Assembly: GCA_964449245.1 (NCBI GenBank)
Contig: CAYUXY010000002.1
Location: 39,463 to 103,462 of the forward strand
Length of the DNA stretch: 64,000 bases
From: an uncultured Candidatus Saccharibacteria bacterium
Lineage (GTDB): Bacteria > Patescibacteriota > Minisyncoccia > UBA6257 > GWB1-50-10
Direction: 5' to 3'
In this document: positions 22,870 to 48,917 of the stretch, one piece after another
How the letters are laid out: every line of letters begins with the position of its first letter
Numbering within the stretch: position 1 is the first letter of the stretch
Notes under the pieces: generated by a model
Told to the model about the DNA's origin: nothing
Databases searched by the model: none
The model's input: only the letters and a program-made list of their open reading frames with translations
Position numbers and translations under genes: made by a program

Positions 22870-22936
22870 AGAGGGCGGGGTAAGGTTTTAAAAACAAATT
22901 TTATTCGACTTTGTCTCAAAAATTTGTATAAAGCCC

Positions 22937-24148: not shown

Positions 24149-24376
24149 AACATTAATGCAAATATACTAATGTATGCTAATTATACGAATAAAAATTGTA
24201 ACTGTCATTACTGATTTATAGTTATTTAATTTTGAATAAGTGAAAAGAGTGAGTATTTTCTTCTCTGTTTTGCCCTCTGCTCTTTTTACTTTCATCTTTC
24301 GTCTGTTGTTGTCCGTATTCTGTAAATTGTCAGTTCTGTTAATTTTATTTCCATCACTCGGTAATTAAATAATTTA

Positions 24377-24450
24377 TTCGAAATTCGAAATTAGGTAAAT
24401 CGAAATTTGCATTACTTTCTACTTTACAAACTTTATAGACTTTTAACTTT
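24377..24450. repeat. dispersed intergenic repeat module A (near-identical copy at 41120..41190)
   Basis: ttcgaaattcgaaattaggtaaatcgaaatttgcattactttctactttacaaactttatagacttttaacttt. Confidence 0.8.
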
Positions 24451-24523
24451 AGTTTTTGACTAACCTGCTCCATATCATATGTTGTTTGTCGTGTATTGTT
24501 AGTTGTTTGTTATATGTCATTCA

Positions 24524-26239
24524 TTATTCCCTTATAACTCTCAAAACTTCTTCGAGGGTGGTAATTCCGAGTTCTACTTTTTTAAGTCCATCTTCGAGCA
24601 TTGTAGTCATACCTTCTGCGCGAGCAATTTTACGCAAAGCATCGAGGCTGAATTCCGGACTCATTATCAATTTTCTGACACCTTCCGTTACATTCATCGC
24701 TTCAAAAATACCAACCCTGCCCAAAAATCCGGAATTATTGCACGCCGGACATCCTCGTCCCCTATATAATACTTTTGGAATTTTAACTATATCAGGGTTA
24801 ACCGCCGAACTTTGAAATTCGAGCTGTATGGCCTTCATCGTTTCTTCATCCGGAGTATAAGATTCTATGCAATCGTTATGAATTCTCCTCGCGAGTCTTT
24901 GCGCGCACACAACATTTAAAACAGCCGCGACCAAAAATGGAGGCACGTTCATATCTATAAGACGCGGAACGGCGGTAGGAGCGTCATTTGTATGAACGCT
25001 CGAAAGCACAAGATGTCCGGTAAGCGCGGACTGCACGGCAATATTCGCCGTTTCCGCATCTCGAATTTCACCGACCATAATAATATTAGGGTCCTGACGT
25101 AATATTGAGCGAAGTCCGGTTGCAAACGTAATACCCGCAGCAGAATTTACCTGCGTCTGATTTACATAACGCATATCATATTCTATAGGATCCTCGATAG
25201 TAACTATATTAACCTCCGACCGATTCAAAATATTCATAATAGAATAAAGAGTCGTTGTTTTTCCTGAACCGGTAGGTCCGCAGACAAGAACCATTCCGTA
25301 TGTTTTTTTGACACCATTTTCCACGAGCTTTATTGTTTCATCAAAAAGTCCGAGTTCATTTAATGAAATCGGTTTTTGAGCCGCATTTAAAAGACGCATC
25401 TCTACTTTTTCTCCATAAAAAGTCGGGATTACGGAAACACGGACATCCATAAGAGCATCGCCTATTTTATGGCGGAATCTGCCGTCTTGCGGATGAGTAT
25501 GTTCGTCCACTCTAAGTCCGGAAAGTATTTTCATACGAGCAGTAATTGCGGGATGAATTTCTTTTGGCATTCTTATTATTTCTTCCAAAACACCGTCTAT
25601 GCGAAATCTTACAAGTATGGCATCATCGAGCGCTTCAAAATGAATATCGGAAGCTCTGGAAGAAATAGCGTATTCAAGAAGGTTGTCGACAATGGCGACT
25701 ATTGGAACATCTTCTGCCTCTTGGTTTAAATCCCCCTTTGATTTAGATCTCAGAGACTCTTGAATCCTGTCTTCTATAATTTTTTTAAAATCCTGCGTGA
25801 GTTGTTTGTGATATAACAAATATCCCCTATTTAAGTCTTCATCTGTGGCAAGATATGGCCTCACCTTTGATTTGAGTCTGAGCGAAAGAAAATCAATCGC
25901 CTCAAGGTCTGTCGGGTTATCCATCGCCACAGCATAAGATCCATCGTCTTCTTTTTTGAAAAGTATTATTTTTCTCTGTCTCGCGACCTCTTCCGGTATA
26001 AGATTCATTACAACTTCGTCTATCTTTTGAGTACCGAGATTAACCCTTTCAAAACCGAGAGTTTTTGCGAGCAAATTGAAGAAGAATTCTTTACTTATAA
26101 GTCCCTTTGAAACAAGAATGTCTACGACGTTCTGCCTTTTTCTGTCGGCTTCGTCTTTTACCGCGTCAAAAGTCGCCGTATCTATCACGCTCGCGGAAAT
26201 GAGCATTTCTTTAATTTGTTGCGATGGAAGTGAAATCAT
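24524..26239 (-). CDS. pilB: type IV pilus assembly ATPase PilB / GspE family
   Basis: 571 aa. N-terminal GSPII_E_N domains, Walker A GPTGSGKTTT, and the tetracysteine motif. Confidence 0.9.
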   Translation of the reverse strand: MISLPSQQIKEMLISASVIDTATFDAVKDEADRKRQNVVDILVSKGLISKEFFFNLLAKTLGFERVNLGTQKIDEVVMNLIPEEVARQRKIILFKKEDDGSYAVAMDNPTDLEAIDFLSLRLKSKVRPYLATDEDLNRGYLLYHKQLTQDFKKIIEDRIQESLRSKSKGDLNQEAEDVPIVAIVDNLLEYAISSRASDIHFEALDDAILVRFRIDGVLEEIIRMPKEIHPAITARMKILSGLRVDEHTHPQDGRFRHKIGDALMDVRVSVIPTFYGEKVEMRLLNAAQKPISLNELGLFDETIKLVENGVKKTYGMVLVCGPTGSGKTTTLYSIMNILNRSEVNIVTIEDPIEYDMRYVNQTQVNSAAGITFATGLRSILRQDPNIIMVGEIRDAETANIAVQSALTGHLVLSSVHTNDAPTAVPRLIDMNVPPFLVAAVLNVVCAQRLARRIHNDCIESYTPDEETMKAIQLEFQSSAVNPDIVKIPKVLYRGRGCPACNNSGFLGRVGIFEAMNVTEGVRKLIMSPEFSLDALRKIARAEGMTTMLEDGLKKVELGITTLEEVLRVIRE

Positions 26240-26407
26240 AAAAATTGAAAGTTAAAAAATCAAAATGGAAAATGGCGTAATATTAATTTCGATTGAATGG
26301 AAGAAGTATAAAGTTAAAAGACGAAGAACGGTCTGAATTCTATGCTATCCTCTCCTCTTTTATCTTTCTACTTTTCACTTTTGTCTTTCTGCCTTCTTCT
26401 CCGACAA

Positions 26408-27007
26408 CTAAAAACTAACAACTACCAACTTAATTAGTATACCAATAATTGCGAGCGGTAGCCAAAACAAATAAAGTGATGTTCGCTCCTTACCGGAACG
26501 ACTATGAATCCTTTGGATGATTGAAAAGACAACTGCCAGCAAAAATACGCACGCAACATAATGAATCCATAAATAATTCCACGCGGGATACCCAAGCAAA
26601 AAAATCGCAAGCGCAGCGAAATACAATTCATCCGGTTCAAAAAAACATCCGCGGGCGCGTTTATTTAAATACGTTCCGCCAAAAAATACTGCGACAGCGA
26701 CGAGCGCCGAAAAACAATAGAACAAAAGGAAGCGCATAAAGTGATAATAGAAAACATATCCTATTCCAAGATAAGGGGGAACAAGAAAACTCGCGGGCGG
26801 ACCGGCAGATTTCCATGCAAAATATTGAGCAATTACTATCCAAAAATAGTATCCGATGATAAAAGATACGGAACAAAATAAAAATACCTTCCCAATAATC
26901 TCTTTAGAAAATTTCCGTTCTTTGTTTTCCTTATTCAATCCGAAAATCTGCATAAAAAATGCGAGCAAAATAAAAAGCGCTGAAATTAACGGGACAATGT
27001 TATGCAT
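26408..27007 (-). CDS. polytopic membrane protein (hypothetical)
   Basis: 5-6 TM helices. The start was moved to the internal Met MHNIVPLISALF because the longer tracked ORF overlaps the pilin terminator. No prepilin-peptidase motifs were recognised. Confidence 0.45.
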   Translation of the reverse strand: MHNIVPLISALFILLAFFMQIFGLNKENKERKFSKEIIGKVFLFCSVSFIIGYYFWIVIAQYFAWKSAGPPASFLVPPYLGIGYVFYYHFMRFLLFYCFSALVAVAVFFGGTYLNKRARGCFFEPDELYFAALAIFLLGYPAWNYLWIHYVACVFLLAVVFSIIQRIHSRSGKERTSLYLFWLPLAIIGILIKLVVVSF

Positions 27008-27032
27008 ATAAGAATTATATAACACGGCGAAT

Positions 27033-27071
27033 ATAAAAAAACCGCGCCCCCTCAGAGGGGGGGGCGGGATA
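27033..27071 (-). terminator. rho-independent terminator after major pilin gene
   Basis: ccgcgccccc-tcaga-ggggggggcgg hairpin followed by a U-run on the minus strand. Confidence 0.6.
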
Positions 27072-27088
27072 GAAATCACAAATGTTTT

Positions 27089-27652
27089 TTACAAATCAAG
27101 TCCGGGATCATTTCCTATCTCGTAATAAGTGTCATCGTTTCCCCCATCTCTATCATTCAATTCAACGCTAGTAGTCGTCGCGGTAGAATATTTCGTGCTT
27201 TCCATATTGGCATCAATTTCAAACGTATCATAAGTGGCATTTCCCTGAAATGCGTATGCATAAGTGGTATTGTTTATTGGATCTATCGGAAGCCTTGAGA
27301 GAGGCGATCCGGCTGAAATTGCGCCAAAATTTATCGGCACCCATCCGCTTCCAGTAACTCCTGTCGAAGTTGAAATGGCATCGCACGTAAATGAGGTCGG
27401 TGGCTCAGACAACGCGGCGGTACAATTTTCGGTAGACGGAATATCAGCTCCGGAAACATCAGCCAAATAAAGCGCTATCGCGCTATGCAATGCCGCGAGG
27501 TCAGAAATTCTCGTGGAATCACGCCCCTGTTTTACAAGCTCTGCTGGATTAAGTATAACGACAACAGCTGTTGCTAAAACAGCAAGAATAGCGATAACGA
27601 CAAGTAGTTCTATAAGAGTAAAACCCTTCTTTTGTTTTTTAATTTTTACCAT
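27089..27652 (-). CDS. pilA: type IV major pilin (prepilin with canonical GFTLIELLVV N-terminus)
   Basis: MVKIKKQKKGFTLIELLVVIAILAVLA, 187 aa. Confidence 0.85.
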   Translation of the reverse strand: MVKIKKQKKGFTLIELLVVIAILAVLATAVVVILNPAELVKQGRDSTRISDLAALHSAIALYLADVSGADIPSTENCTAALSEPPTSFTCDAISTSTGVTGSGWVPINFGAISAGSPLSRLPIDPINNTTYAYAFQGNATYDTFEIDANMESTKYSTATTTSVELNDRDGGNDDTYYEIGNDPGLDL

Positions 27653-28228: not shown

Positions 28229-28557
28229 AAGAAACTTTTTAGCTGCCCCAATTTCACCGGTGTTTAAAAAGATCCGGCAACTTTTTTTGGTACCGTGCTT
28301 GCGCACGGTATTACAAACCGCTGAAAGTTATCCGCCATTTGAAAATAGATTTCCAAATAAAAAGCGGATTGCTTTCGGCGATGTGTAATCGACTAAATTA
28401 ATTAATCCACGAACAGCTTCCGCTACCCGTGCCTTGTTACGACTTCGTCCGTGTCACCGAGCTTAGGCTGAACCCCTGTTGGAGTTTTCACCCACTCCCG
28501 GCTCCCCTGACGTGACGGGCGGTGAGTACAGGACTCGAGAACGTATTCACCGCGGCG

Positions 28558-28593
<36 letters not shown>

Positions 28594-28835
28594 AGGGCGA
28601 GTTGCAGCCCTCAATCCGAACTGGGGCGGTTTTTGATGGGATTAGCTCCGTCTTACGACTTGGCAACCCATTGTTTCCGCCATTGTAGCATGTGTGTAGC
28701 CCAGGGCGTCAAAGGGCCATGCTGATTTGACGTCGTCCTCGCCTTCCTCCGTCTATAAGACGGCAGTATCCCGTGACACATATAACACGGGAGAAGGGTT
28801 GCGCTCGTTACCCCACTTAAGGGAACACCTCACGG

Positions 28836-28866
<31 letters not shown>

Positions 28867-29121
28867 CCCGCCGTCCTTGCGGACAACAATCCTTTCGGAC
28901 TGTCTTCGTCGGGATTTCAAGCCCTGGTGAGGTGTCTCGTTTACCATCGAATTAAACCACATGCCCCACCGCTTGTGCGAGTCCCCGTCTATTCCTTTGA
29001 GTTTTAAGCTTGCGCTCGTACTTCCCAGGCGGCAGATTTAACGCGTTAGCTACGCCACCCCGAGGGTCGATACTCGAGACAGCTAATCTGCATCGTTTAG
29101 GGCGTGGACTACAAGGGTATC

Positions 29122-29765
29122 TACAATTTTGTTACTGCATAACAAAATTGCAATTTCTAATTTTGAATTTCGAAACTAATCGAAATAAAAATCTAATAAT
29201 TGCAAGCTCTGTTATGGGATGAAATATTTCTATTCATCTCTCTATGTCGCCATAGAGTTCGGCCTATATCTTCTCATCATAATGACGAGTCTGGCGTATA
29301 GTCTCTGAGGCTCCAAATTTACTATAGAAAATTATTCTTGAATCATTGTATAGACGATTCGAAGAATTTCTCAATTTTGATCTCATCGATTGCTTATCAT
29401 TGCTTCTATACAAGATCATTGCTTGATCGATTGATCAATTTTCCTATCAACATAATAAAATTGTTGCCTGCTGATTGTCTGCACCGAAAAGATTTTCACT
29501 CAACAATGAGTACTCTCGGATTCTCAGATTTTCCAGCATATAGCCAGATTATCCCCCGGACGACTTTCCGGAGGGGACTAATGCTCAATGGTACCCTTCC
29601 ACTCCGCGTATTCTTCAATACGCGAGACAATACATTTTTCAAGAAGCTCTCGGAAGTGAAAAAGATTGGTCTTTTGTAAAACAAAAGTTTTTCACTGAGA
29701 GTGCAAACCCGATTTTCCGCTGGAGAAAATCGAGGTTGGTTCTTGAAAATGAATTATCGAGCAAG
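29122..29765 (-). other. ~640-nt intervening sequence inside 16S (between GGATTAGA and GATACCC), ORF-less and highly structured
   Basis: Conserved 16S sequence is contiguous once this block is removed. No homing-endonuclease ORF. Multiple local hairpins. Boundaries are ambiguous by 2 nt. Confidence 0.7.
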
Positions 29766-30335
29766 TCTAATCCTTTTTGCTCCCCACGCTTTCGCGCCTC
29801 AGGGTCAGGAACGTCCCAGCAGAATGCCTTCGCCTTTGGTGTTCCGCACGATATCAACGGATTCCACCCCTACACCGTGCGTTCCATCTGCCTCTAACGC
29901 CCTCTAGTATGATAGTTTCCACGGCAGTTTCGGAGTTGAGCCCCGAGATTTAACCGCAGACTTATCATGCCCCCTACGCGCCCTTTACGCCCAATAAATC
30001 CGGATAACGCTTGTGGCCTTCGTATTACCGCGGCTGCTGGCACGAAGTTTGCAGCCACTTATTCCCGCCGTACTATCAGTCTTGCGACTTTCTCCGGCGG
30101 AAAAGTAGTTTACACACCTAAATGCTTCATCCTACACGCGGCGTCGCTCCATCAGGCTTTCGCCCATTGTGGAATATTCTCGACTGCTGCCTCCCGTAGG
30201 AGTAGGAACCGTATCTCAGTTTCCTCGCTGGGGAACAGGCTCTCACCTCCCCTACCGGTCGTAGTCTTGGTAGGCCATTACCCTACCAACTAACTGATCG
30301 GACCTAAGCCACTCCCAAAGCAACTTGCGTCTTTA

Positions 30336-30432
30336 CCCATCTCCAGTTCACTGAAAACAATTTCCTAAATACAAAGTTTGTAATATTAACATTCTTTGTT
30401 CAAAAAAATGTACTCAGTGAACTGGGGATGGG
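30336..30432 (-). repeat. 97-nt structured hairpin element in 16S V2 helix (copy A)
   Basis: cccatctccagttcactg ... cagtgaactggggatggg. Identical to copy B except for one compensatory base pair. Confidence 0.85.
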
Positions 30433-30515
30433 ACCATCGGGAATTAGTTCGCCTTTCGGCGAATTATGCCCGACTCTGGGGTATGTACTAAGGTGTTACT
30501 AGCTCGTTCGCCACT

Positions 30516-30612
30516 CCCAGCTCCAGTTCACTGAAAACAATTTCCTAAATACAAAGTTTGTAATATTAACATTCTTTGTTCAAAAAAATGTACTCAGTGA
30601 ACTGGGGCTGGG
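30516..30612 (-). repeat. 97-nt structured hairpin element in 16S V1 helix (copy B)
   Basis: cccagctccagttcactg ... cagtgaactggggctggg. Identical interior to copy A. Confidence 0.85.
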
Positions 30613-30764
30613 CGTTCGACTTGCATGCCTTATCCACGCCGCCAGCGTTCATCCTGGACCAGGATCAAATCCTCAAAAAAACAAATTGGGACAACTAAAA
30701 AATTTCTTTATTTTTTCGCTGTTTTAACTATTAAATTGACAAAAAACTTTCCTTTTTCACAGCA

Positions 30765-33424: not shown

Positions 33425-33467
33425 AAGCTCTCGTGAACGTGTTTCGTTTACGAGAGCTATTTTTTTA
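33425..33467 (+). terminator. rho-independent terminator
   Basis: agctctcgtgaacg-(loop)-cgtttacgagagct followed by TTTTTTT. Confidence 0.65.
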
Positions 33468-33786
33468 CAGACGACCGAAGCGGGGCGAAAATCCGCGTCC
33501 CTCGCCGGAAAACAGACGCCATTCCATAACTACTGGTATCGATTTCCCATTGCAAAGCTCCTCCAATCCACCTCAGCAATACGACAATTATATCTCCGTC
33601 TGTGTTAACGAAGAATACATTGTCTCTTTTTAAGAACTGCATTCTTTTTTTAATAAATGCAGCTATAACTGCGAAATTATCAAAGACTTTATCCTGCGAG
33701 AAAAAATCTCTGGCAATTTCACTCTTTTGAAGAATAAAGAAAATGAACCCCTCTTCTTCTTCAAAAAGCTCCAATTGCTTTCCCAT
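33457..33786 (-). CDS. hypothetical protein
   Basis: 109-aa ORF preceded by a perfect SD AAAGGAGGTGA 8 nt before the ATG. No recognised domain. The 3' end overlaps the convergent terminator. Confidence 0.45.
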   Translation of the reverse strand: MGKQLELFEEEEGFIFFILQKSEIARDFFSQDKVFDNFAVIAAFIKKRMQFLKRDNVFFVNTDGDIIVVLLRWIGGALQWEIDTSSYGMASVFRRGTRIFAPLRSSVKK

Positions 33787-33828
33787 CTTTCATTCACCTC
33801 CTTTCAAGGTTATCTGTTGGTTATTATA

Positions 33829-33862
33829 CAATAAAAAACCGCGATGGTCAATCGCGGTTTTA
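33829..33862 (-). terminator. rho-independent terminator after prfA
   Basis: aaccgcgat-ggtcaa-atcgcggtt followed by a U-run on the minus strand. Confidence 0.55.
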
Positions 33863-34597
33863 TTTCATTTCTCTCGCAGTCTTAATTATCTTATCCATAT
33901 CCCCCTCTAAGGTCTTCTCCACCCCGTAGAATTTTTTGCCCATTCTGTGATCGGTTATCCTGTCTTCGGGGAAATTATACGTCCTTATCTTTTCCGAACG
34001 GTCTGCGGAGCCTATCTGCTCTTTTCGTATCTGGTCAACGGACCCGACAGCTTGCTCTCGAGTTATCTCAAAAAGTTTTGCTCGGAGTATTTCCATAGCC
34101 TTTTCCCTGTTTGCGTGCTGTGTCCTTTCCTCTCGCGAAGAAATGACTATTCCTGTGGGCTTATGGGTAATCCGCACGGCAGTTTCAACTTTATTTACAT
34201 TTTGCCCTCCGGGACCGCCTGAACGGCAAAAAGTTATTTCCAAATCGCTTTCTTTTATATCAACCTCCTTTGCTTCCACGATAGGCAAAATGGCAACGGA
34301 CGCCGTTGATGTGTGAATCCTTCCCTGACGTTCCGTAACAGGCACGCGCTGAACGCGGTGAACTCCTGATTCCTGTTTCATATCGTTATATACCCCCTCG
34401 CCTTTTATTTCTGCGACAAAGGTTTTATACCCCTGCGCGCCGGATTCGGACGCGTCAACTATACCAAATCCCCATCCGCGCTTTACGGCATATCTCTGAT
34501 ACATTCTCGCCAAATCTCCGGCAAAAATCGACGCCTCATCTCCACCCGCCCCGGCTCTGATTTCAACAATAATCTTTTTTATATTTTCAACATTCAT
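33860..34597 (-). CDS. prfA: peptide chain release factor 1-type protein lacking N-terminal domain 1
   Basis: 245 aa. PVT codon-recognition tripeptide ([14 protein letters not shown]) and GGQ motif ([11 protein letters not shown]). Begins directly at the [10 protein letters not shown] region. Confidence 0.8.
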
Positions 34598-34843
34598 AAT
34601 ATTTTATTCCATTTTTTTACACACCGGGGCGAGGCTCGCCGAATTGTTTGCTGTAAGCTGGAGGCGGCCCGCCCCGGCCCTGATTTCAACAATAATCTTT
34701 TTTATATTTTCAACATTCATAATATTTTATTCCATTTTTTTACACACCGGGGCGAGGCTCGCCGAATTGTTTGCTGTAAGCTGGAGGCGGCCCGCCCCGG
34801 CCCTGATTTCAACAATAATCTTTTTTATATTATTCGTATCCAT
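34553..34843. repeat. 123-bp tandem direct repeat (about 2.4 copies) duplicating the prfA start region
   Basis: ATGs at 34597, 34720 and 34843 on the minus strand. Each upstream copy encodes [38 protein letters not shown] then a stop. Confidence 0.85.
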
Positions 34844-34910
34844 ATGATTTATAAATCAATAACACTGATGCTGACGTTCACAAGTACAAAAATTATTATC
34901 CAAAAATCCG

Positions 34911-35789
34911 CTAAAGACAAGTTTGTTTAAAAAGGCTGACTCTTTTTAAAATGAGCTCTTCCATATCGGAAACGACTGGGGAAAGCAATTTATAAGGAGC
35001 AACTTCTTGATTTGAATTTGTAAAAGATTTTTCTATGCTATTGCGCCACAAAACACGCAACTCTGTCGAAATATGTATTATTGAAACGCCGGCGGAAATT
35101 GCTTTTTTAAAATCATCATCCGAAATTCCGGAACCGCCGTGCAAAACCAACGGCACGCCTGCCGACGCACGGATTTTTGAGATTCTTTCTATGTCGAGTT
35201 TCGGATTCGGCGAGTTTTTAAGCATACCGTGTAAATTGCCTACCGCCGGAGCGAGCATATCAATCCCCGTCTTTTTTACAAATTCTCTCGCCTCTTCCGG
35301 AGTCGTAAAATGCGCTTCATGAACCGCCACTCCATCTGGAATCTCATCAAGCATCTTTGACGAAGTGCCTATATATCCGAGTTCGGCTTCTAAAATCGGT
35401 TTTTCCCCGAAAGGAGCGCGCTTTTTTAGAACGCGAACGGCTTCCTTTGTCATTCGAATATTTTCACTAAAAGATAGATTGGCTCCGTCAAAAATTATCG
35501 AATCAAATCCGGCCTTCGCCACGCGTTCTACTCCTTCAATCGAACGTGTATGATCGGCGTTTAAAAAAAGTTTTGCTCCGTTTTTGCGATAAATTTTGAC
35601 GAGAGATGCTATTTCACTGACCCCAATAAAATCCCGCTCGCTTTCGGAAACGCCTACAATAATAGGAAAATTCAATTTCACTGATACATTCGCGATAGCC
35701 TTAATCTGTTCAAGCGTTGAAACATTAAAATGCCCTATGGCAATTTTTTGCCTCTCCGCATTTTTTATTGTTTTTAATAATGATTCCAT
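34911..35789 (-). CDS. fba: class II fructose-bisphosphate aldolase
   Basis: 292 aa with class II aldolase metal-binding His residues and TIM-barrel motifs (HGGSG). Confidence 0.9.
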   Translation of the reverse strand: MESLLKTIKNAERQKIAIGHFNVSTLEQIKAIANVSVKLNFPIIVGVSESERDFIGVSEIASLVKIYRKNGAKLFLNADHTRSIEGVERVAKAGFDSIIFDGANLSFSENIRMTKEAVRVLKKRAPFGEKPILEAELGYIGTSSKMLDEIPDGVAVHEAHFTTPEEAREFVKKTGIDMLAPAVGNLHGMLKNSPNPKLDIERISKIRASAGVPLVLHGGSGISDDDFKKAISAGVSIIHISTELRVLWRNSIEKSFTNSNQEVAPYKLLSPVVSDMEELILKRVSLFKQTCL

Positions 35790-35798
35790 ATTTTTATT

Positions 35799-35959
35799 AT
35801 ATCAGCATCGCACCACTTTATTCGTATCATTCGAATGCATTAGTATATTAGCATCGCACTTATTCTATTCGTATCATTCGTATAAATTCGTATATTAGCA
35901 TTGTGTCTATTCATTCGTATCATTCGCATAAATTCGTATATTAGTATTATACCTATCTT
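35799..35959. repeat. ~47-bp tandem repeat x3.4 immediately upstream of fba
   Basis: Units tagcatcgcac ... attcgtatcattcgYataaattcgtatat repeated head-to-tail. Confidence 0.8.
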
Positions 35960-37211
35960 ACATTTCAAAATATCCCTTTAATAAATAATCTTTCATATAC
36001 CGTTCGAGTTCTTCTTCGCTAAAATATTCCATAAATATTTTGTTCCACAATGCCTCACCATGATGATAAAGATATTTTATAAGCTCCTTCTGTTTTACAA
36101 GAGACATTACGGTATCGACAAGATTAAAACTTACAAGCGCATCTTTCTCCTTATTGGAGCTGAAATACCCGCCAACCCAGTCGAGATCCGCCCAAAATTC
36201 AAGATCGTCTCCAAGACCATCTATGCTGTTTCCAAATGCAATCAGATCCTTCTCCGCTCTCATCCAATGAAGCGCCTCCGGATTCACGCGCGGTACAAAA
36301 AGTCGCGGGTCATTTTCGTCATCTTTGGCGAGATATCTTTGAACGACGAGCCATACGGATTTTTCCCCGTTTTGAGTATGCATTTCCGGAACATCTCCGC
36401 GGAGAAGCGACACGAAGTTTGAAGAAAAAGTCGCGGGAACTTTGGCAATTTCTCTGAATATGTCGGAATAAAACGGCACCTCGTGAATATAGTGAAATAT
36501 CAAACTGATCATTCTCAAAAGCTCGCCGGAAATACCGAGCGAAACCGGAATAATAAAAATCACTCCCATTTCTTTTAAATGGCTGATATTGTGCCATTTT
36601 TTCTTTACAAATTTCTCCGCTACGCCATTCCATTTTGAAGGTATGGCAAGCGCACGCACTTCACGTTCTTCAAAGTCGTCCGGAGAAAGAGATTCATATT
36701 GCTTAAAAAAAACGCCGTTAAGCCACTCCGCGCTTTCAATAAAGCGAAGCGCGCTCATTATTTCAAACAAGTCTTCTCTGCATAACATTTCATCAACCGA
36801 ATCATATCCAAGAAATTTCATAATTTCCTTCGGGGGTTCGTTGCGCAAAAATTCTCGGGCCTTCTCTTCTTTGATAAAAAATCCTTTTGGATTGCCGGCG
36901 ACATCAAGCGCGCGTTTAAGCAAATGAGAACAATCTTCGCAGTCTCCGGATTTTGGAAAGTTCAGAGCTTCGGAGATTTTTTTATCGTCAGCGTCTATCT
37001 TTGAAATAAGCGCGTTATATATGCTATGGGCATCCGCAGAAAAAGAGAGTCCCAATGCGGACAGCCTGTCAGCCATTTTTGCATCGTTATTATCGGCGAT
37101 ATTTTTAAAAATTCCATTTTTACCGGAAATTAAAGAAAGCCTGCGTTCGGCTTTTTCCAAAAAAGATTTGTCCGTTCTTAAAATTTTCGCAAGCTTTTCA
37201 ATATGATCCAT
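35958..37211 (-). CDS. hypothetical protein (417 aa)
   Basis: Long ORF with no recognisable motif. Compositionally similar to neighbouring genes. Confidence 0.55.
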   Translation of the reverse strand: MDHIEKLAKILRTDKSFLEKAERRLSLISGKNGIFKNIADNNDAKMADRLSALGLSFSADAHSIYNALISKIDADDKKISEALNFPKSGDCEDCSHLLKRALDVAGNPKGFFIKEEKAREFLRNEPPKEIMKFLGYDSVDEMLCREDLFEIMSALRFIESAEWLNGVFFKQYESLSPDDFEEREVRALAIPSKWNGVAEKFVKKKWHNISHLKEMGVIFIIPVSLGISGELLRMISLIFHYIHEVPFYSDIFREIAKVPATFSSNFVSLLRGDVPEMHTQNGEKSVWLVVQRYLAKDDENDPRLFVPRVNPEALHWMRAEKDLIAFGNSIDGLGDDLEFWADLDWVGGYFSSNKEKDALVSFNLVDTVMSLVKQKELIKYLYHHGEALWNKIFMEYFSEEELERYMKDYLLKGYFEM

Positions 37212-37223: not shown

Positions 37224-38228
37224 CTATACTGATTCGATATCCGAATCAAGCTCCTGCCATCTCGGTTTTTCGATATCACGCGCAGTAAGCGCGCCTTCCG
37301 TAGCTCCGAAGTGCTCGATTACCGACGTAGCGTTTGCAGACCCGACGCGTAGCGCGTATCCGATATCGTTTTTCCTGATAAGTCCGGCAATAAATCCGGA
37401 AGCGAACGCGTCTCCGGCGCCCGTCCTGTCAACAACTTTCTTTTCCTGAAATATTCCTGCGCGATAAATATATTCTCCGTCAGAGGCGGATACTCCGTTT
37501 TTCCCATCGGTCATAACGGCAATGCCGTCTACAATATGGTCGAATTCTTTAAAAATTTTCTTTTCGTCTCGGCGCGGAATGCCGGTTAAGATCGACGCCT
37601 CATCGCGGTTTAATATGACAACGCCTACCATTCCGAAAAGCTGTTCGATGTCGGCTTTCTTCAATTTTAAATATGATGCGGATGGATTAATGGCAACACG
37701 CGTTCCTGATTTTTTAAACTTTGAAACGATTTCTTTCATCGCGCTTATTGGAATATCACCCGTTGAAATATACGCCCAATCGGCGCGCATCTTGGGAAAT
37801 GTAATATTCTTTTCGCGTATATCGCTTCCTCCTGCGCGATATGTAAAAATAGCCCGTTCCCCGTCCGGAAAAACGAGCGTAACGGAATAACCCGTGCCAA
37901 GCTTTTTGTCTATTTCAATAAAGGCGCTGATGTTTTCGGATTTCAGGCTTGATAATATTTCCCTGCCGGCGACATCGTCCCCCAAGACACCCGCTATTCC
38001 GGTTTTAAAGCCCTGCCGAGCAAATGTAATAGCGGTATTGTGCGCCCCGCCTCCGCCTGCAAAAATAGGCCTTTCTATCGAGAGTTTTGAGCCTAACGCA
38101 AAACACCCCGCTTCTGGGGCGTCAATTCCTATCTTCTTTATAAGTCCGGAGTTCGTAACAGTCTTAAACGCCGGAGCCTGAATAAACACTTCCCTGACAA
38201 TCGTCCCGATCGTAATAATATCGAACAT
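37224..38228 (-). CDS. PfkB-family carbohydrate/nucleoside kinase (ribokinase-like)
   Basis: GGGAHN N-terminal GG motif and C-terminal TGAGDAFASGF PfkB signature. 334 aa. Confidence 0.85.
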   Translation of the reverse strand: MFDIITIGTIVREVFIQAPAFKTVTNSGLIKKIGIDAPEAGCFALGSKLSIERPIFAGGGGAHNTAITFARQGFKTGIAGVLGDDVAGREILSSLKSENISAFIEIDKKLGTGYSVTLVFPDGERAIFTYRAGGSDIREKNITFPKMRADWAYISTGDIPISAMKEIVSKFKKSGTRVAINPSASYLKLKKADIEQLFGMVGVVILNRDEASILTGIPRRDEKKIFKEFDHIVDGIAVMTDGKNGVSASDGEYIYRAGIFQEKKVVDRTGAGDAFASGFIAGLIRKNDIGYALRVGSANATSVIEHFGATEGALTARDIEKPRWQELDSDIESV

Positions 38229-38249
38229 ATGCCTTATATTACCCCAAAA

Positions 38250-38290
38250 ACCATAAAAATTAAAGCACCCGATTATAAACCGGGCGCCTG
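38250..38290 (-). terminator. rho-independent terminator after small Cys-rich ORF
   Basis: RNA stem gcgcccgg/ucgggugc (with G-U pairs) followed by UUUAAUUUUUAUGG. Confidence 0.5.
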
Positions 38291-38315
38291 TTTTGTAAAA
38301 TGTTTTGTCCTTTTA

Positions 38316-38456
38316 TTATCTGAAACGCCATTTGCACTTAACGCCACCGCAACAGTGTTTCTTATGTTTACATTTACATCTTTTTACTGTAGGTGGTTTT
38401 TGATTCGCTTGTTCCACACCTACCACCGCTACGGTTATTCTAGCTTTCTTTTCCAT
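38316..38456 (-). CDS. small cationic cysteine-rich protein (46 aa), unknown function
   Basis: MEKKARITVAVVGVEQANQKPPTVKRCKCKHKKHCCGGVKCKWRFR. RBS AGAGGAA 5 nt upstream, own terminator downstream. Confidence 0.5.
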   Translation of the reverse strand: MEKKARITVAVVGVEQANQKPPTVKRCKCKHKKHCCGGVKCKWRFR

Positions 38457-38580
38457 ACTATTCCTCTTTCTTATGTAAAAGGACAAAAGTGAATTGAGTT
38501 CACAATATAACACAATCGGGCGCTTTCTGCAAGCGCCTGTGGAAAACTTATATACCGCAATGAAATTATGCAAATAAACA

Positions 38581-38608
38581 AGAAAAAATCTCCGCAAATG
38601 GGAGATTT
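38581..38608 (-). terminator. rho-independent terminator
   Basis: aaatctcc-gcaaatg-ggagattt hairpin with a U-run on the minus strand. Confidence 0.55.
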
Positions 38609-38788
38609 ATTTCTTCTTGAAATATTGTTGTATCCTGTTAATCGTTATTTCTTCTTTTAACTTTTTACTTTTCTCTTTCGTCTTGTTATTTCTCTCATCC
38701 TGTCAAAAGTCTCTTTTTGTTAATCGTTAATCCTATTAATCGTCATTTGTTCTTTTATCTTTTAACTTCTTTCATTCGATTATTAATT

Positions 38789-38868
38789 CATTCAATCGAA
38801 ATTCGAAATTAGATAAATCGAAATTTACCGTATTTTTTTCTACATACTATATACAATATTCTATATAC
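38789..38868. repeat. intergenic repeat module A plus motif B (actatatacaatattctatatac) overlapping the NUDIX stop codon
   Basis: cattcaatcgaaattcgaaattagataaatcgaaattt ... ctacatactatatacaatattctatatac. Confidence 0.75.
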
Positions 38869-39331
38869 TCATCTTTTCTTCTTCCAACGTATGTTCCAGC
38901 ACTACATCATCATCGCCAAACAAAAATTTGCCTCTAAATTTCTTTCCCGCGAGAAAAAGCGACATCCAATATATATCGCTCGGCCACATATCGGAAAATG
39001 GAATTTCCGCAATATTAAACCATTTTGGCGCCATTTCGTCAGATTCAACCGGCTCGCCCTCAAATTTGTCCGAATAAAAGATGTGCATCTCGAGAGTTTC
39101 CCCTTCTCTATTTTTTGATTCGAATTCAAGCACTCCTCGTTTTTCATAAGATAAAATCTTTATTCCGGATTCTTCAAGCATCTCGCGGACACACGTTTCT
39201 TCAACTGTTTCGTTTTCCTCTACCTTTCCGCCAAATCCATTCCACCTGCCAGCGCCGAAACGGACCTTTTTCATCCCGAGTAAAATTTCATTACCCCGCC
39301 TGATTAGACACAATGTAAAAACTTTTTTCAT
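38861..39331 (-). CDS. NUDIX hydrolase (MutT-like)
   Basis: Nudix box GGKVEENETVEETCVREMLEESG. 156 aa. Confidence 0.85.
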   Translation of the reverse strand: MKKVFTLCLIRRGNEILLGMKKVRFGAGRWNGFGGKVEENETVEETCVREMLEESGIKILSYEKRGVLEFESKNREGETLEMHIFYSDKFEGEPVESDEMAPKWFNIAEIPFSDMWPSDIYWMSLFLAGKKFRGKFLFGDDDVVLEHTLEEEKMSI

Positions 39332-39422
39332 ATTAGTATTTCGTATTTTTGTCTTTCTTCTTTTCTCTTTTAACTTACGTATTTAGAAATTTGCATTTTT
39401 ACTTTAAACTTTCATCTTTTCT

Positions 39423-39451
39423 CCCTACGGGAGATCTGCCGTAGGCAGACA
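39423..39451. repeat. palindromic core tccctacgggagatctgccgtaggcagac inside an AAAG/CTTTT-rich array (reverse-complement copy at 60499..60530)
   Basis: Two nested palindromes, tctccc-tac-gggaga and tctgcc-gta-ggcaga. Exact reverse complement occurs 21 kb away. Confidence 0.8.
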
Positions 39452-39558
39452 ACTTTATATTTCTCCCATTCAATCATTAATACATTCAATCGAAATTCGA
39501 AATTAAGTAATTAGAAATTATTTCTCCTGCATACTATATACAACATTCTATATACCAT

Positions 39559-40074
39559 TTACTTTCTTTTGAATATACCTACGGCTATTCCTATCTCCTC
39601 CTGAATTCCCTTAACACAATCGTAGTTTTTAATCTCTTCTTCATTTACCCACGCGAAATCGGTAAATGCGCCCTCTTCAGGGCGAACTTCGCCGGATTTG
39701 TATTTCACAGCAAGTTTTATAAGAACTACAGGAATCCCGTCAGGACGCACAAACGCAACGCTATTTATATAAACAAACTCGTCTTTTATCTCCACTCCTG
39801 CCTCTTCCTTTATTTCTCGTTTCAAAAGTTCTTCGACGGCGTTTTCAAAATCAAAAACATCGCCATTCATTCTCGTTGGCTTCGATAAATCAAGGTCTTT
39901 CCACTCAAGCTTTCCGCCCGGAACACAATATTTCCCCGGATGCACTTTTTCCGTTTCGCTTCTTTTTAAAATCAAACTTCTCCCGTCGCTCTCACGATAA
40001 ATAACCGCGTTTGCGACGAAATAAAAAAGTTTATTTTCTTTTGCGTTTTCAAGACTTATTTTCTCTACCGTCAT
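39559..40074 (-). CDS. NUDIX hydrolase
   Basis: GGKLEWKD ... REIKEEAGVEI Nudix box. 171 aa. Confidence 0.85.
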   Translation of the reverse strand: MTVEKISLENAKENKLFYFVANAVIYRESDGRSLILKRSETEKVHPGKYCVPGGKLEWKDLDLSKPTRMNGDVFDFENAVEELLKREIKEEAGVEIKDEFVYINSVAFVRPDGIPVVLIKLAVKYKSGEVRPEEGAFTDFAWVNEEEIKNYDCVKGIQEEIGIAVGIFKRK

Positions 40075-40088
40075 AGTTTTAAAATTAT

Positions 40089-40538
40089 TTATGGAATATA
40101 AAATAAATTTTTCTTATAGTTTTCAACCATCATTGCACTCGGAAAATACATAGGGCTTGGCAAATCGTCAACATCAAACCAACACCATTCGACTATCTCA
40201 TCCGGTTCCATAATTTGTGGCTCTCCGGAGAATTTATCCGAAAAAAGTCCTACGGTCACAAAATGCGCGTGTTCATTTTTGCAATTATTCACGCAAAACA
40301 CTTTTATTTCATCCAAATGAAGTCCTGTTTCTTCGAGCACTTCACGTTTAGCTCCGTCTTCGAAAGATTCGCCAAAATCCATCTTCCCGCCGGGCATTGT
40401 CCACGTTCCTTCTCCTCGCAACTCCGAGCTCGCCTTTTCGGCGTCAGAATGACGCCTTCCGAGCAATATTTTCCCGTCACGCATTACCATAACACCAAAC
40501 CCAGCTTTTACTATTTTCTTTTGTATTTCATTATCCAT
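40089..40538 (-). CDS. NUDIX hydrolase
   Basis: PGGKMDFGESFEDGAKREVLEETGL Nudix box. 149 aa. Confidence 0.85.
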   Translation of the reverse strand: MDNEIQKKIVKAGFGVMVMRDGKILLGRRHSDAEKASSELRGEGTWTMPGGKMDFGESFEDGAKREVLEETGLHLDEIKVFCVNNCKNEHAHFVTVGLFSDKFSGEPQIMEPDEIVEWCWFDVDDLPSPMYFPSAMMVENYKKNLFYIP

Positions 40539-40573
40539 AAGACTATTATTTTATATTTAAAAATAACCCGCCA

Positions 40574-41002
40574 CTATATTTTATCTTTATATAATTCGAA
40601 AAACTTGGGCAATTGGGAATGTAACGGTGTTGGTAGCGTGTCAAAGGTGAACCATTTTACATCTTCAAATTTATGAGGCTCTCCATTTTTTACCTTCTCT
40701 CTGTTGATAAACACCTTAAAATCAAGCGCTATCCAGTGAGTCCTCTTGCCATCGTGCTCCCTATGAACATCCCTATATCCCAAAAATTCGTAATCTAAAA
40801 CATCCGTGCAATATTCTTCTTTAATTTCTTTTTTTAATGTATTTTCGACGGTATCACCAAACTCAAGCGCGCCAGCTCCTATATCCCATGCATTATGCTC
40901 ATCACGACAATTTGCGCTTCTTTTTGCCAACAACACATTTGCCTTTCCGTCATGACAAAGATATACAACAGTTACTCCGGTATAGTCTTCTCCTTTTTTC
41001 AT
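40574..41002 (-). CDS. NUDIX hydrolase
   Basis: GAGALEFGDTVENTLKKEIKEEY Nudix box. 142 aa. Shares the start context acaaaaatacgaaatactaatATGAAAAAAG with the gene at 39331. Confidence 0.8.
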   Translation of the reverse strand: MKKGEDYTGVTVVYLCHDGKANVLLAKRSANCRDEHNAWDIGAGALEFGDTVENTLKKEIKEEYCTDVLDYEFLGYRDVHREHDGKRTHWIALDFKVFINREKVKNGEPHKFEDVKWFTFDTLPTPLHSQLPKFFELYKDKI

Positions 41003-41119: not shown

Positions 41120-41190
41120 CATTCAATCGAAATTCGAAATTAGGTAAATCGAAATTTGCATTACTTTCTACTTTATAAACTTTTAACTTT
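41120..41190. repeat. dispersed intergenic repeat module A (copy)
   Basis: cattcaatcgaaattcgaaattaggtaaatcgaaatttgcattactttctactttataaacttttaacttt. Confidence 0.8.
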
Positions 41191-41413
41191 CTTCTCCTAT
41201 ATATTCAAACCTCGGCATCTTTTTCCCGTCAATTTCAACGTCTTCCATAAACATATCAAGTGGCCTGACCCACATAGTATTTGCACCCTTACCCTTAATA
41301 GGATCCTCGTGAATATATACCGCCATCTTCTCCATAGTTTCGCTATGTAACGCGACACCAATCAATTCAACAATCATTCCTTTATAGTGCCTGTATTTTC
41401 CCAATTTGAGCAT
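41183..41413 (-). CDS. DUF1653 domain protein
   Basis: KYRHYKG ... HSET ... WVRP signature. 76 aa. Confidence 0.75.
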   Translation of the reverse strand: MLKLGKYRHYKGMIVELIGVALHSETMEKMAVYIHEDPIKGKGANTMWVRPLDMFMEDVEIDGKKMPRFEYIGEES

Positions 41414-41482: not shown

Positions 41483-41944
41483 TTATTTCTGGCCATAAAA
41501 TCTTTCGTGCAATTCCGGACATTCATTCTTAAAAATTTCCTCCATTGGATCTTTCTTTTTCACTTGCTTAAATTGAATGCCTCTTTTTGACCCGCCTTTC
41601 ACTCTCAAAATAAAACTACTGACTAATTTAGAGCACTCGGTTGCTAAATTATTTAAATGCTTAAATGTTTCAATACTTAAATAACCGACATCTAACGCCG
41701 CATACAACTGCGCGCGAACTTCACCAGCCGACCCTTTTGCAATATATAAATAGTTGATAAATCCAGCCGTAGTTCCGCTTTCAAATCCCTCTGCGATATT
41801 ACTCATCACCGAAACCGACGCTCTCTGAATTTGGTCTTTAAAACCCGCGTCATTACAATTTTTGAAAGCATTATAGACATCGCGGGTTAATTCTCTGGAT
41901 TTTTGCCAACAAATAAGGTCTTCAAATTTTTCAATCGTTGCCAT
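41483..41944 (-). CDS. four-helix-bundle protein (23S rRNA intervening-sequence protein family)
   Basis: FEDLICWQKSRELTRDVY ... SNIAEGF ... YLYIAKGSAGEV matches the TIGR02436-type pattern. 153 aa. Confidence 0.75.
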   Translation of the reverse strand: MATIEKFEDLICWQKSRELTRDVYNAFKNCNDAGFKDQIQRASVSVMSNIAEGFESGTTAGFINYLYIAKGSAGEVRAQLYAALDVGYLSIETFKHLNNLATECSKLVSSFILRVKGGSKRGIQFKQVKKKDPMEEIFKNECPELHERFYGQK

Positions 41945-46597: not shown

Positions 46598-47473
46598 CTA
46601 TCGCAAGCCAAAAACAGATATGTGTCCACCTGAAATTTCAGCTTTTATCGTTCCATATTCATCCGTCCTGAATATTTCCGCTCCAGAGTCTAAAATACGA
46701 CCGACCGCCTCCATAGACGGATGTCCATACGAATTTTTGCCAACCTCTATAAATGCGAGTTTTGGCTTTATTGCGCTTAAAAAATCATTACCGCTCGAAT
46801 ATTTCGAGCCGTGATGTGCAACCTTCAGAATATCTATCTCTGGCAAAAAAGATGCGATTGCGGATTCCGAAGCAAAGCCTACGTCTCCGGAAAAGAGCGC
46901 GCTTGCCCCGTCGCTCCTTAGAAGAGTAACCATACTATTGTCATTCATATTTTTTTGTACGCTATCGTATCTCGGCCACAAAATTTCTATTACTGAATCC
47001 CGATAATGGATTTTGTCGCCTCCGGAAACAACGATGCGCGTAATGCCTGCGCTATTTATTTCTTCTTCAAAAACTTCGAAAGATTCGCTGTCGCTTTTAA
47101 GTTTCGCGAGAGCAAGCGATCTTATAGGCATACTTTTTATAACATCCGCAAACCCGCCATAATGGTCTATTTCCGGATGTGTTAAAATCGCTAAATCTAT
47201 TTTTTTATTTGTAAAAGGAAGTATGTTGCCAATTTCGTTCGCTGATCGGCCGTTAGCCGGCCCGGCGTCTATCAAAATATTTACTCCGCCCGCAAAAGTT
47301 ATAAGCTCGCTGTCGCCTTGCCCTACGTCAAGAAAATAAAGAGCTGTTCCGTTTGTGTCTTCGGATAAAAATCCGGCAATTGCAAAAATATCAAACACGA
47401 GGCATATTGCCGTTATTGAGAAAAAAATATTCAGACGTTTTCTTTTTTCGTAATATTGTTCTCGCGATTCCAT
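46598..47473 (-). CDS. ComEC/Rec2 C-terminal metallo-beta-lactamase-fold domain protein
   Basis: LDVGQGDSELITFAGGVNILIDAGP and HHGS motifs. 291 aa. The 5' end overlaps the preceding ComEC ORF by 83 nt in another frame. Confidence 0.75.
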   Translation of the reverse strand: MESREQYYEKRKRLNIFFSITAICLVFDIFAIAGFLSEDTNGTALYFLDVGQGDSELITFAGGVNILIDAGPANGRSANEIGNILPFTNKKIDLAILTHPEIDHYGGFADVIKSMPIRSLALAKLKSDSESFEVFEEEINSAGITRIVVSGGDKIHYRDSVIEILWPRYDSVQKNMNDNSMVTLLRSDGASALFSGDVGFASESAIASFLPEIDILKVAHHGSKYSSGNDFLSAIKPKLAFIEVGKNSYGHPSMEAVGRILDSGAEIFRTDEYGTIKAEISGGHISVFGLR

Positions 47474-48917
47474 AAAAAATGATTAACGCTGTGTAATATA
47501 ATAGCACGGCTGGAGTGGAAAAATTCAGGGACACGCCTCCGCTAATTTTACCAAAAAATTCTATGATTCCTATTTCGCATTGTAACAAGAATCCGAGCAC
47601 TACTCCGGAGATAATCGAAAGAAAAGGCAGTGAAAGCTCCACAAAAACAGAGACAAACCCGAGAGCCATTGTAAACGGCGTAAGGGATAAAAGAACTATA
47701 TTTGCCGGCAAGGACGCAAGAGAGACAAAGCCAAATTTGGAAAGCAAAATTGGCAAAACCGTTATTTGCGCGGAAACGGTAGTTAACAGATTTTCTTTCC
47801 ACGAGAATATTCCTTTGTCTCCGTTTGTGTTCAAAAAAAGTTCTATTTTGGGCTTCAAATAAACGATGCCGAGTAAAGCGAGGAACGAGAGTTGAAAGCC
47901 GATATCAAAAATCAAAATTCGGGGATTATATAAAGACATAATTAGCGCCGAGAGCAAAATAACATTTTTCATACTTTCCCCGCTTCCAAATAGGCGCCCG
48001 AAAAGAATAGATGCCCCCATGATTCCTGCGCGGGCAACCGAAGGCTCCCCTCCCGTCATTATTGAAAATCCGGCTATCGAAAACAGCGATGCGAAAAACG
48101 AACCTCGCGGAGTCATAAAAAGCGTAAACAGTGATGCTACGGCAAGAATTAAAATTGTTATGTTGTATCCGGAAAGCGCGACGAGATGCGTAGTTCCACT
48201 CTTCTTCATAGCTTCATCAAATTCGGAAGAAAAATCGTTTGTATTGCCAAGCAATATACCCTTTAAAAAAGCTGCGGATTTATACGGCAAAATAGCATTA
48301 ATTGCGAGCTCGACTTTTCCTTTTATTTTAAATAGCGCGGATTTAATGAAAGAACCGTTATTATGAGAAATTAAAATAATTTCAGGAAACGATAAAATTC
48401 CATACATTCCTTCTTTTATTAAATAATTTCCATATCCGTTTTCGGGAATCTGTTTTATTTCTCCGGTAAATTCTACTTTGTCGCCATATTTGAAGACAGG
48501 AAATCTCGCGGTCTGAATAAGTATATTACCCCTATAAGGCTCTGATAATTTTACCGCAATCTCCTGCTTTTTTTCTGAAAACGCCGGCGATTTTGACACA
48601 ATACCTTGAATCGTAACGGCATCTGAAAATGGAATATTTATTTTACTATTCTGTATATCAAAAAATCCGGAATAAAACGCTCCGCAAAATATAAATGATG
48701 CCACGAATGGAAAAAACAAAAAGCCTTTCTTTTTGGAGAAAAAATAGCAAACGAGCGGAACTATAAATAAAACGAGTATGAACGGGAATGCCGTCACGCC
48801 GAAACCTAAGCTCGCAAGCGCAATTCCAATGAGCACTCCCGACGACCCCCAAAAGAATTTTTTATGCAGAGCATCAAGCGAATGCGCGAGAAAAAATGAC
48901 ATGAGCGAAAAATACAA
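47391..48917 (-). CDS. ComEC/Rec2 competence membrane-channel domain protein
   Basis: 508 aa polytopic membrane protein with a competence-domain-like core. Confidence 0.7.
   Translation of the reverse strand: MYFSLMSFFLAHSLDALHKKFFWGSSGVLIGIALASLGFGVTAFPFILVLFIVPLVCYFFSKKKGFLFFPFVASFIFCGAFYSGFFDIQNSKINIPFSDAVTIQGIVSKSPAFSEKKQEIAVKLSEPYRGNILIQTARFPVFKYGDKVEFTGEIKQIPENGYGNYLIKEGMYGILSFPEIILISHNNGSFIKSALFKIKGKVELAINAILPYKSAAFLKGILLGNTNDFSSEFDEAMKKSGTTHLVALSGYNITILILAVASLFTLFMTPRGSFFASLFSIAGFSIMTGGEPSVARAGIMGASILFGRLFGSGESMKNVILLSALIMSLYNPRILIFDIGFQLSFLALLGIVYLKPKIELFLNTNGDKGIFSWKENLLTTVSAQITVLPILLSKFGFVSLASLPANIVLLSLTPFTMALGFVSVFVELSLPFLSIISGVVLGFLLQCEIGIIEFFGKISGGVSLNFSTPAVLLYYTALIIFYGIARTILRKKKTSEYFFLNNGNMPRV

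Follow-up and report, generated by a model that had tools for sequence, protein, structure and literature searches.

A conserved small-gene cassette upstream of pfkB in a Parcubacteria-type genome and the probable orphan basic protein it encodes

In the Flavobacteriia most genes lack a Shine-Dalgarno (SD) motif, yet rpsU, the gene for the small basic ribosomal protein bS21, keeps a strong one, and the anti-SD of the ribosome is present but sequestered. Protein bS21 belongs with bL36, bL32, bL33, the zinc form of uS14, bS22/Sra and bTHX, which are about 40-70 amino acids (aa) long, very basic and highly expressed, and which sometimes carry a four-ligand Cys/His zinc site. Here we describe a candidate small gene that invites comparison with both, located in a 64,000-nucleotide (nt) stretch of contig CAYUXY010000002.1 (the window), whose organism is a Candidate Phyla Radiation (CPR) bacterium of the Parcubacteria type. 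The candidate, a 46-codon open reading frame (ORF) preceded by the purine motif AGAGGAA, lies between a NUDIX hydrolase gene and a pfkB-family kinase gene. As in the Flavobacteriia, most genes around it have no SD while a gene for one small basic protein has an SD-like motif; the two cases differ in that the flavobacterial anti-SD is sequestered, whereas here the anti-SD sequence itself is gone from the 16S rRNA. The predicted peptide is similar to the small ribosomal proteins in size and basicity. In contrast to their CxxC...CxxC/H spacing it has the arrangement CxCxHxxHCCxxxxC, it matches no Pfam or NCBIfam family, and its gene stands outside any ribosomal operon.

An independent small gene encoding a genuine orphan small basic protein is the best-supported reading of this locus, with a probability that we put at roughly 0.55-0.65. 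An independent gene had also been proposed in an earlier annotation made from the sequence alone (the original prediction), and the proposal gains its main support from the closest relatives, where the position of the cassette is conserved and occupied by called small genes. The unit would be monocistronic, consisting of an extended -10 promoter, a leader of about 45 nt containing AGAGGAA, the 46-codon ORF and an intrinsic terminator, and it would represent the local version of a conserved small-gene slot that extends from the NUDIX gene to a leaderless pfkB.

The cassette and its counterparts in related genomes

The original prediction had placed a 46-aa ORF with its own start motif and terminator at 38250-38470, leaving the strand unstated. 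Such an ORF indeed lies within this interval, on the minus strand, running from an ATG at 38456-38454 to a TAA at 38318-38316 (Table 1), and it encodes exactly MEKKARITVAVVGVEQANQKPPTVKRCKCKHKKHCCGGVKCKWRFR. Where six Cys in 20 residues had been counted, we find five (C27, C29, C35, C36 and C41), all within the last 20 residues and accompanied by two His, so that seven potential ligands fall within 15 residues. The motif AGAGGAA is present as described; its spacing to the ATG is 4 nt (TAGT), or 6 nt when counted from the GAGG core, rather than the 5 nt given before. The downstream hairpin and U-tract were found as predicted. The whole unit sits in a 632-nt spacer between the NUDIX gene (38861-39331) and the pfkB-family kinase gene (37224-38228), with all genes on the minus strand, and its leader of about 45 nt consists of AACTCAATTCACT, a pyrimidine tract and AGAGGAA.

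Table 1. Coordinates of the small-gene cassette and of other window genes preceded by an SD-like motif.
Feature	Position	Strand	Details
Terminator-like hairpin and T-run closing the upstream NUDIX unit	38586..38608	-	8 pairs, then TTTCTTGTTT
GC-rich hairpin GGCGCTTGCAGAAAGCGCC	38519..38537	-	-14.6 kcal/mol; immediately upstream of, and overlapping, the -35 region
Extended -10 element TGTTATATT (TGnTATATT)	38504..38512	-	Aligns with GATATAAT, GATACAAT and CTATAAA in relatives
Start of the 5' untranslated region (5'UTR), AACTCAATTCACT	38488..38500	-	Conserved in relatives
5' arm TTTTGTCCTTTTA of a perfect 13-nt inverted repeat	38476..38488	-	Over the 5'UTR pyrimidine tract conserved in relatives
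SD-like purine motif AGAGGAA	38461..38467	-	4 nt before the ATG
46-codon ORF and TAA	38316..38456	-	Net charge +11.6, isoelectric point (pI) 10.2, 5 Cys and 2 His
3' arm TAAAAGGACAAAA of the 13-nt inverted repeat	38303..38315	-	Directly after the stop codon
Intrinsic-terminator-like hairpin and U-rich tail	38250..38289	-	Stem 38289-38263, 12 pairs, -17.0 kcal/mol, then UUUAAUUUUUAUGGUUUUU; 27 nt past the stop codon
Leaderless-type pfkB promoter	38229..38241	-	TAATAT, 7 nt, ATG at 38228
Motif-bearing gene	33457-33786	-	109 aa
Motif-bearing gene	55908-56276	+	122-aa membrane protein
Motif-bearing gene	56571-57158	+	195-aa secreted protein

For the proteins encoded around the cassette, the best relatives share 46-58% identity and come from Brennerbacteria, Wolfebacteria, Jorgensenbacteria and Paceibacterota metagenome-assembled genomes. 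We compared the slot across the loci with the closest pfkB relatives (54-58% identity; L162, L163/164, L166-168, L169, L170/L174, L171 and L172), and in the compared relatives the gene order is kept as SecA..NUDIX, small genes, pfkB, a protein of 411 or 417 aa, fructose-bisphosphate aldolase and release factor. In the closest relatives, small genes called by gene callers occupy the space between NUDIX and pfkB, with products of 61 and 124 aa in L162, 123 aa in L163, 54 and 77 aa in L166, 60 aa in L169, 55 aa in L170 and 52 aa in L172; in L171 a possible product of 27 aa was assigned in the present analysis. Among relatives whose pfkB is at most 52% identical, nothing comparable was found upstream of that gene, and L002 has a transketolase gene directly upstream.

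The similarity extends to the expression signals. From the NUDIX gene, or a CTP-transferase gene in its place, to pfkB, the relatives present a -10 box, a leader, a pyrimidine tract, an AGGAGG-type motif, an ATG, a hairpin followed by a T-rich terminator and a leaderless pfkB promoter. The 5'UTR of the window can be aligned with that of the relatives (ACTCAATYCACT), and it begins about 4-9 nt downstream of the -10 box with AACTCAATTCACT in the window, GACTCAATCCACT in L163, GTCCAATTCACT in L172 and TCCAACTCACT in L162. The ATG follows the -10 box by a near-constant distance of about 50 nt, and at the position of AGAGGAA the relatives have AAGGAGG, ACGGAGG or GGGAGG. Most relatives examined also share the leaderless pfkB arrangement, with 7-9 nt from box to ATG (14 nt in L170). 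Since the chance expectation for a 12-mer at a fixed offset, allowing one mismatch at most, is only about 1e-5 per locus, we conclude that the cassette is orthologous, and hence that the window ATG is the positional equivalent of start codons accepted by gene callers in the relatives.

The products themselves resemble each other in bulk properties. In 7/8 loci the ORF that opens the slot encodes 27-61 aa with a net charge of +9.5 to +12.8 and a pI of 10.2-12.0, and the window peptide has a charge of +11.6. With respect to position, cassette, size (27-61 aa) and charge (at least +9.5), the window peptide therefore falls within an informal group that we term the NUDIX-pfkB slot small basic proteins. 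Five of these proteins in relatives (P0124, P0126, P0125, P0127 and P0128, from L166, L169, L172, L170 and L162) agree with the window in position, promoter and 5'UTR, distance from motif to ATG, terminator and leaderless pfkB, and together with the window peptide they span 46-61 aa and net charges of +10 to +13. They differ from it in a conserved TK(Y/R)IF..R motif, which is missing from the window peptide, and in having 0-3 non-conserved Cys as against its 5 Cys and 2 His.

Taken together, the slot in the closest relatives appears always to open with a small ORF that looks strongly expressed, is usually 27-61 aa long and is extremely basic, and the window product would be a lineage-specific orphan of this kind, with 46 aa, a charge of about +12 and a CxCxH..HCC....C cluster. 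We infer that it is translated, and its likeliest role may lie in binding nucleic acid or the ribosome as an abundant small basic protein, a suggestion based on the small size and extreme basicity of the slot products, their apparently strong expression and their fast evolution. The charge (+11.6) and pI (10.2) are suggestive of association with ribosomes or nucleic acid. Within the Cys/His cluster a metal ion, zinc or another, may be bound, or a beta-hairpin may form; the pattern matches no Pfam, NCBIfam or PDB entry, either as a canonical ligand spacing or as a family profile. Metallothioneins are characterized by CxC and CC motifs, which the Lys-interspersed CKCK...CC pattern of the window peptide resembles; the peptide differs from them in having only 5 Cys and no family match. 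AlphaFold2, run without an alignment, gave a low-confidence beta-hairpin at residues 27-36 (predicted local distance difference test score, pLDDT, 63.5), a score too low for the model to be used in a fold search. If translated, the peptide would be one more unannotated lineage-specific small CPR protein, useful for annotation and ordinary in kind, and the slot as a whole would illustrate how small proteins can become unrecognizably different while the expression cassette that hosts them is conserved.

Several further observations concern the sequence on either side of the small gene. The GC-rich hairpin upstream of its promoter is likely a second terminator or an insulator, and the same layout of hairpin followed by promoter occurs in L172. 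Both hairpins that flank the gene (38258-38291 and 38507-38540, minus strand) share ACAGGCGC...GCGCCCG(A/G)TT and are followed by a -10-like box (TTATATT or TATAAT), which suggests a duplicated hairpin-promoter module. The second copy of this module, with a promoter-like TTTACA-16-TATAAT (38299-38272; 11/12 matches), overlaps the terminator. Farther upstream, the spacer at 38610-38860 is of low complexity (22-29% GC), with three TTAATCGT motifs, short 7-nt arrays and a 49-nt direct repeat (38632-38680 and 38730-38778, 84% identical); similar purine-rich repeats are also present at 60400-60600.

An SD-like motif without an anti-SD

The original prediction had taken a good SD as an argument for expression, an argument that the ribosomal RNA does not bear out. 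The tail of the window 16S rRNA (28395-28420, minus strand) reads GGAUUAAUUAAUUU and contains no CCUCC, ending in ...GUUCGUGGAUUAAUUAAUUU instead of ...GGAUCACCUCCUU, and housekeeping genes have no SD. No CCUCC occurs within 4 kb downstream of the 16S gene, and the only one inside the gene lies in its group I intron, which also rules out an anti-SD relocated to the 16S insertions. Lacking CCUCC, this 16S rRNA makes classical SD:anti-SD pairing impossible for AGAGGAA, and a pairing-energy profile over 55 window genes shows no SD dip. Loss of the anti-SD has been described for a subgroup of Parcubacteria (PMC9297842). The 16S gene itself (28395-30680, minus strand) spans 2286 nt. Besides the group I intron at 29240-29629 it has two insertions of about 75 nt near its 5' end, which carry near-identical hairpins (inverted repeats 30513-30543/30585-30615 and 30336-30363/30405-30432).

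The same combination of a missing anti-SD and a motif in front of the slot gene was found in L174. Its 16S tail (18070-18100), GGAUCAAUUAUAUCU, likewise has no anti-SD, its slot gene carries GGAAGGAGG, and a well-placed motif was found in 0/20 of its other genes. The motif is almost exclusive to the slot gene in L162, L163, L166, L169 and L172 as well. This near-confinement of an AGGAGG-like motif to the slot gene indicates that the motif is under selection there, and its conservation supports a functional constraint on the cassette, not SD-mediated initiation.

In the window, a perfect AGGAGG or AAGGAG also stands 6-9 nt before the ATG of three other genes (motif regions 33787-33805, 55890-55907 and 56553-56570; genes in Table 1), which are leadered and monocistronic and have no Pfam match. 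In about ten of the 55 window genes a TATAAT-like box precedes the ATG by 5-9 nt (for example at 38229-38241, 34790-35810, 3565-3590 and 12498-12520), a pattern that suggests leaderless mRNAs to be widespread in this organism.

One could propose that the AGGAGG kept before a fast-evolving basic mini-protein acts independently of any anti-SD, the mini-protein being a lineage-specific translation or ribosome factor, an idea that we consider quite unlikely. Under it the motif might be read, for example, by the basic protein in an autoregulatory role, by a second RNA that pairs with it or by a component of the ribosome. The slot proteins were checked against bS21 and are not bS21. An altered SD matching the AU-rich 16S tail was considered and rejected, the trend being weak and explainable by AT-richness near start codons; sequestration of the SD-like motif by the pyrimidine tract was likewise unsupported, the 5'UTR folding no more stably than shuffled sequences. 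A conserved AGGAGG in organisms whose ribosomes cannot pair with it is a concrete puzzle, and one more intriguing than the ORF itself.

Gene, decayed gene or something else

Considered by itself, the ORF is weakly non-random and its coding statistics are ambiguous, so that the comparative evidence has to carry the case for a gene. In dinucleotide shuffles of the stretch from ATG to terminator, a frame open for at least 46 codons from the fixed ATG arose in 2.9% of cases, and of the 167 nt that separate the ATG from the terminator stem the ORF takes up 141. At the Cys frequency of the window (1.0%), the probability that 46 residues include five Cys is about 1e-4. Under a 3-periodic third-order Markov model trained on 44 long window ORFs, the frame of the ORF ranks first of six. 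The local GC content (0.35-0.39) exceeds that of the neighboring spacer (0.22-0.29) but stays below that of typical coding sequence.

Several results weigh against a genuine protein-coding gene, and we list them here together. The coding score of the ORF (-0.040 per nt) is lower than that of 99% of real 141-nt gene segments and is reached by 15% of spurious ORFs. Profile and sequence searches with the peptide, suggested as a check by the original prediction, detected no relative: a word-index protein search returned zero candidates; an exhaustive phmmer search against 1.84 billion representatives returned three hits, all of them spurious long repeat proteins that accumulate weak matches; Pfam and NCBIfam gave no hits at E values up to 10; and PHROGs, the PDB (phmmer) and phage sequences (tblastn) gave no match; the original prediction, too, had matched the peptide to no ribosomal protein. 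Nothing emerged from degenerate-pattern scans of viral and metagenome contigs, and tblastn against the syntenic loci, first 80 and then about 170, found no homologue (a match to 'CGGTSNRWRSR' in L002 proved to be an out-of-frame chance match). No called gene in public annotation has exactly this peptide as its product. Nor is it significantly similar to the slot proteins of the relatives (best Smith-Waterman shuffle p 0.09; phmmer E at least 0.13). The sole multi-member family in the slot, formed by the 54-aa protein of L166, the 60-aa protein of L169 and the 52-aa protein of L172 (E 7e-8 to 0.003), has no conserved Cys (0-3 per protein), so that the Cys-richness is private to the window lineage; a profile of this family found 5 proteins (clusters) in 5.8 billion and did not serve as a bridge to the window peptide. 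The basic character shared across the slot is partly compositional, as an A/G-rich spacer translates into Lys/Arg-rich products. To these points are added the missing anti-SD and the fact that AGAGGAA is the weakest version of the motif among the relatives. Apart from the window contig, this organism is represented only by a contig from Logan SRR8925738 (L161), which has the identical sequence, is cut inside the ORF and thus provides no population signal.

These same observations underlie the rival that survives best, namely that the cassette is real, the ancestral small gene has been lost or scrambled and the 46-codon frame is fortuitous. Such a decayed or chance ORF would account for the lack of sequence conservation with any relative, the coding score in the spurious range, the weak motif, the uncalled product and the basic residues that A/G-rich DNA yields by default, and part of the Cys/Lys cluster does derive from a 6-nt tandem duplication, TGTAAATGTAAA. 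It fits less well with a frame that is unbroken over nearly the whole interval between the conserved ATG and the terminator (P = 0.029), that is the best of six, that matches the first slot ORFs of the relatives in size and charge, and that has a GC content above its surroundings. We regard decay or chance as somewhat unlikely. Lack of conservation of the ORF in relatives had been named in advance as a sign of a chance frame; what we find is divided, the peptide sequence being not conserved while the cassette and the position of the start codon are.

A second alternative is that the transcript of about 250 nt acts as a structured non-coding RNA in which the ORF is incidental. Its minimum free energy (MFE) over 38500-38250 on the minus strand (-63.3 kcal/mol) is lower than that of shuffled sequences (-47.8 ± 4.1 kcal/mol; z = -3.8), and in the MFE fold a perfect 13-bp stem between 5' and 3' ends (38488-38476 with 38315-38303) closes the ORF into a loop. 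This stem is absent in all relatives, though, and a perfect 13-nt inverted repeat appears in 9% of shuffles of the low-complexity spacer; in relatives the transcripts differ widely in length and carry called genes for proteins of 52-124 aa, the ATG keeps its position, and Rfam has no match in the region even at E values up to 10. An RNA function is improbable, and the 13-bp pairing may be a stabilizing feature.

The peptide had also been likened to a leader plus core, as in ribosomally synthesized and post-translationally modified peptides (RiPPs), or to an antimicrobial peptide, and CPR bacteria, as episymbionts, must interact with their hosts. A secreted cationic peptide with antimicrobial or host-interaction activity, or a RiPP precursor whose maturation enzymes lie elsewhere, would be in keeping with the cationic, Cys-rich, Trp/Phe-containing C-terminal 20-mer, which follows a KR dibasic site and resembles beta-hairpin antimicrobial peptides. 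Like tachyplesin, protegrin and hepcidin, the segment is short, highly cationic and rich in Cys, Trp and Arg, and the low-confidence hairpin at residues 27-36 falls within it. Other features differ: the Cys count is odd (5), the peptide has no Sec-type signal or double-glycine leader (its hydrophobic run, ITVAVVGV, is 8 residues long, and inspection found no AxA-type site), the context is that of the bacterial cytoplasm, no homology to such peptides was found, and no processing or export genes are adjacent. A Pfam scan of nearly all ORFs of at least 100 aa in the 64-kb window extended the earlier remark that modification enzymes are missing nearby: it found no radical SAM/SPASM, lanthipeptide (LanB/C/M), YcaO or C39-peptidase ABC gene, and only an ABC/HlyD pair 35 kb away. 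RiPP leader families (Nif11/NHLP, double-glycine, SCIFF and others) gave 0 hits, no core family matched, there is no GG/GA cleavage motif, and the syntenic proteins of the relatives have no Cys cluster. Neither the leader-core layout nor an antimicrobial function thus finds support, and we hold this class of explanation to be highly improbable.

Scarcely credible is a leader-peptide attenuator, or an invertible or mobile mini-element, controlling pfkB: a small ORF and a terminator do lie directly upstream of pfkB on the same strand, and 13-nt inverted repeats flank a 160-bp segment, but pfkB is served by a leaderless promoter of its own, which most relatives examined share, the MFE fold leaves the terminator isolated, with no antiterminator alternative overlapping the end of the ORF, the downstream genes are glycolytic and not for Cys or Lys biosynthesis, and the inverted repeat is neither significant nor present in relatives. 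An inverton or a miniature inverted-repeat transposable element was dropped from consideration because the 64-kb window contains no recombinase (Pfam scan as above).

Other features of the window

Four NUDIX hydrolase genes stand in tandem at 38861-41002 (minus strand), and the first and last of them by coordinate (38861-39331 and 40574-41002) are preceded by an identical 25-nt sequence, AAAGACAAAAATACGAAATACTAAT. On the other side of the slot, pfkB is followed by a gene for a 417-aa protein (35958-37211, minus strand) that has no Pfam, NCBIfam or PHROG match and whose counterparts (411-455 aa) always come after pfkB in the Parcubacteria relatives; the two form a conserved gene pair next to the class II aldolase gene. 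The class I release factor encoded at 33860-34597 (minus strand) is short (245 aa; 243-275 aa in relatives), and its PCRF profile is matched only from position 100, so that this clade seems to lack the N-terminal domain.

A 23S rRNA intervening-sequence protein is encoded by a stand-alone gene at 41483-41944 (minus strand). Beside it, at 41183-41365 (minus strand), lies a probable unannotated small ORF of about 60 aa, suspected by eye only to be DUF1653-like; a PF07866 gene occupies the corresponding relative place in L170. A cluster of type IV pilus or competence-like genes extends over 17285-27652 (minus strand), comprising a T2SSE ATPase, T2SSF, several N-methyl prepilins with Laminin_G_3 and a TraG/TrwB-like coupling protein, and ComEC is encoded at 47391-48902; together, type IV pilus or competence-like genes and ComEC are typical of CPR surface machinery.

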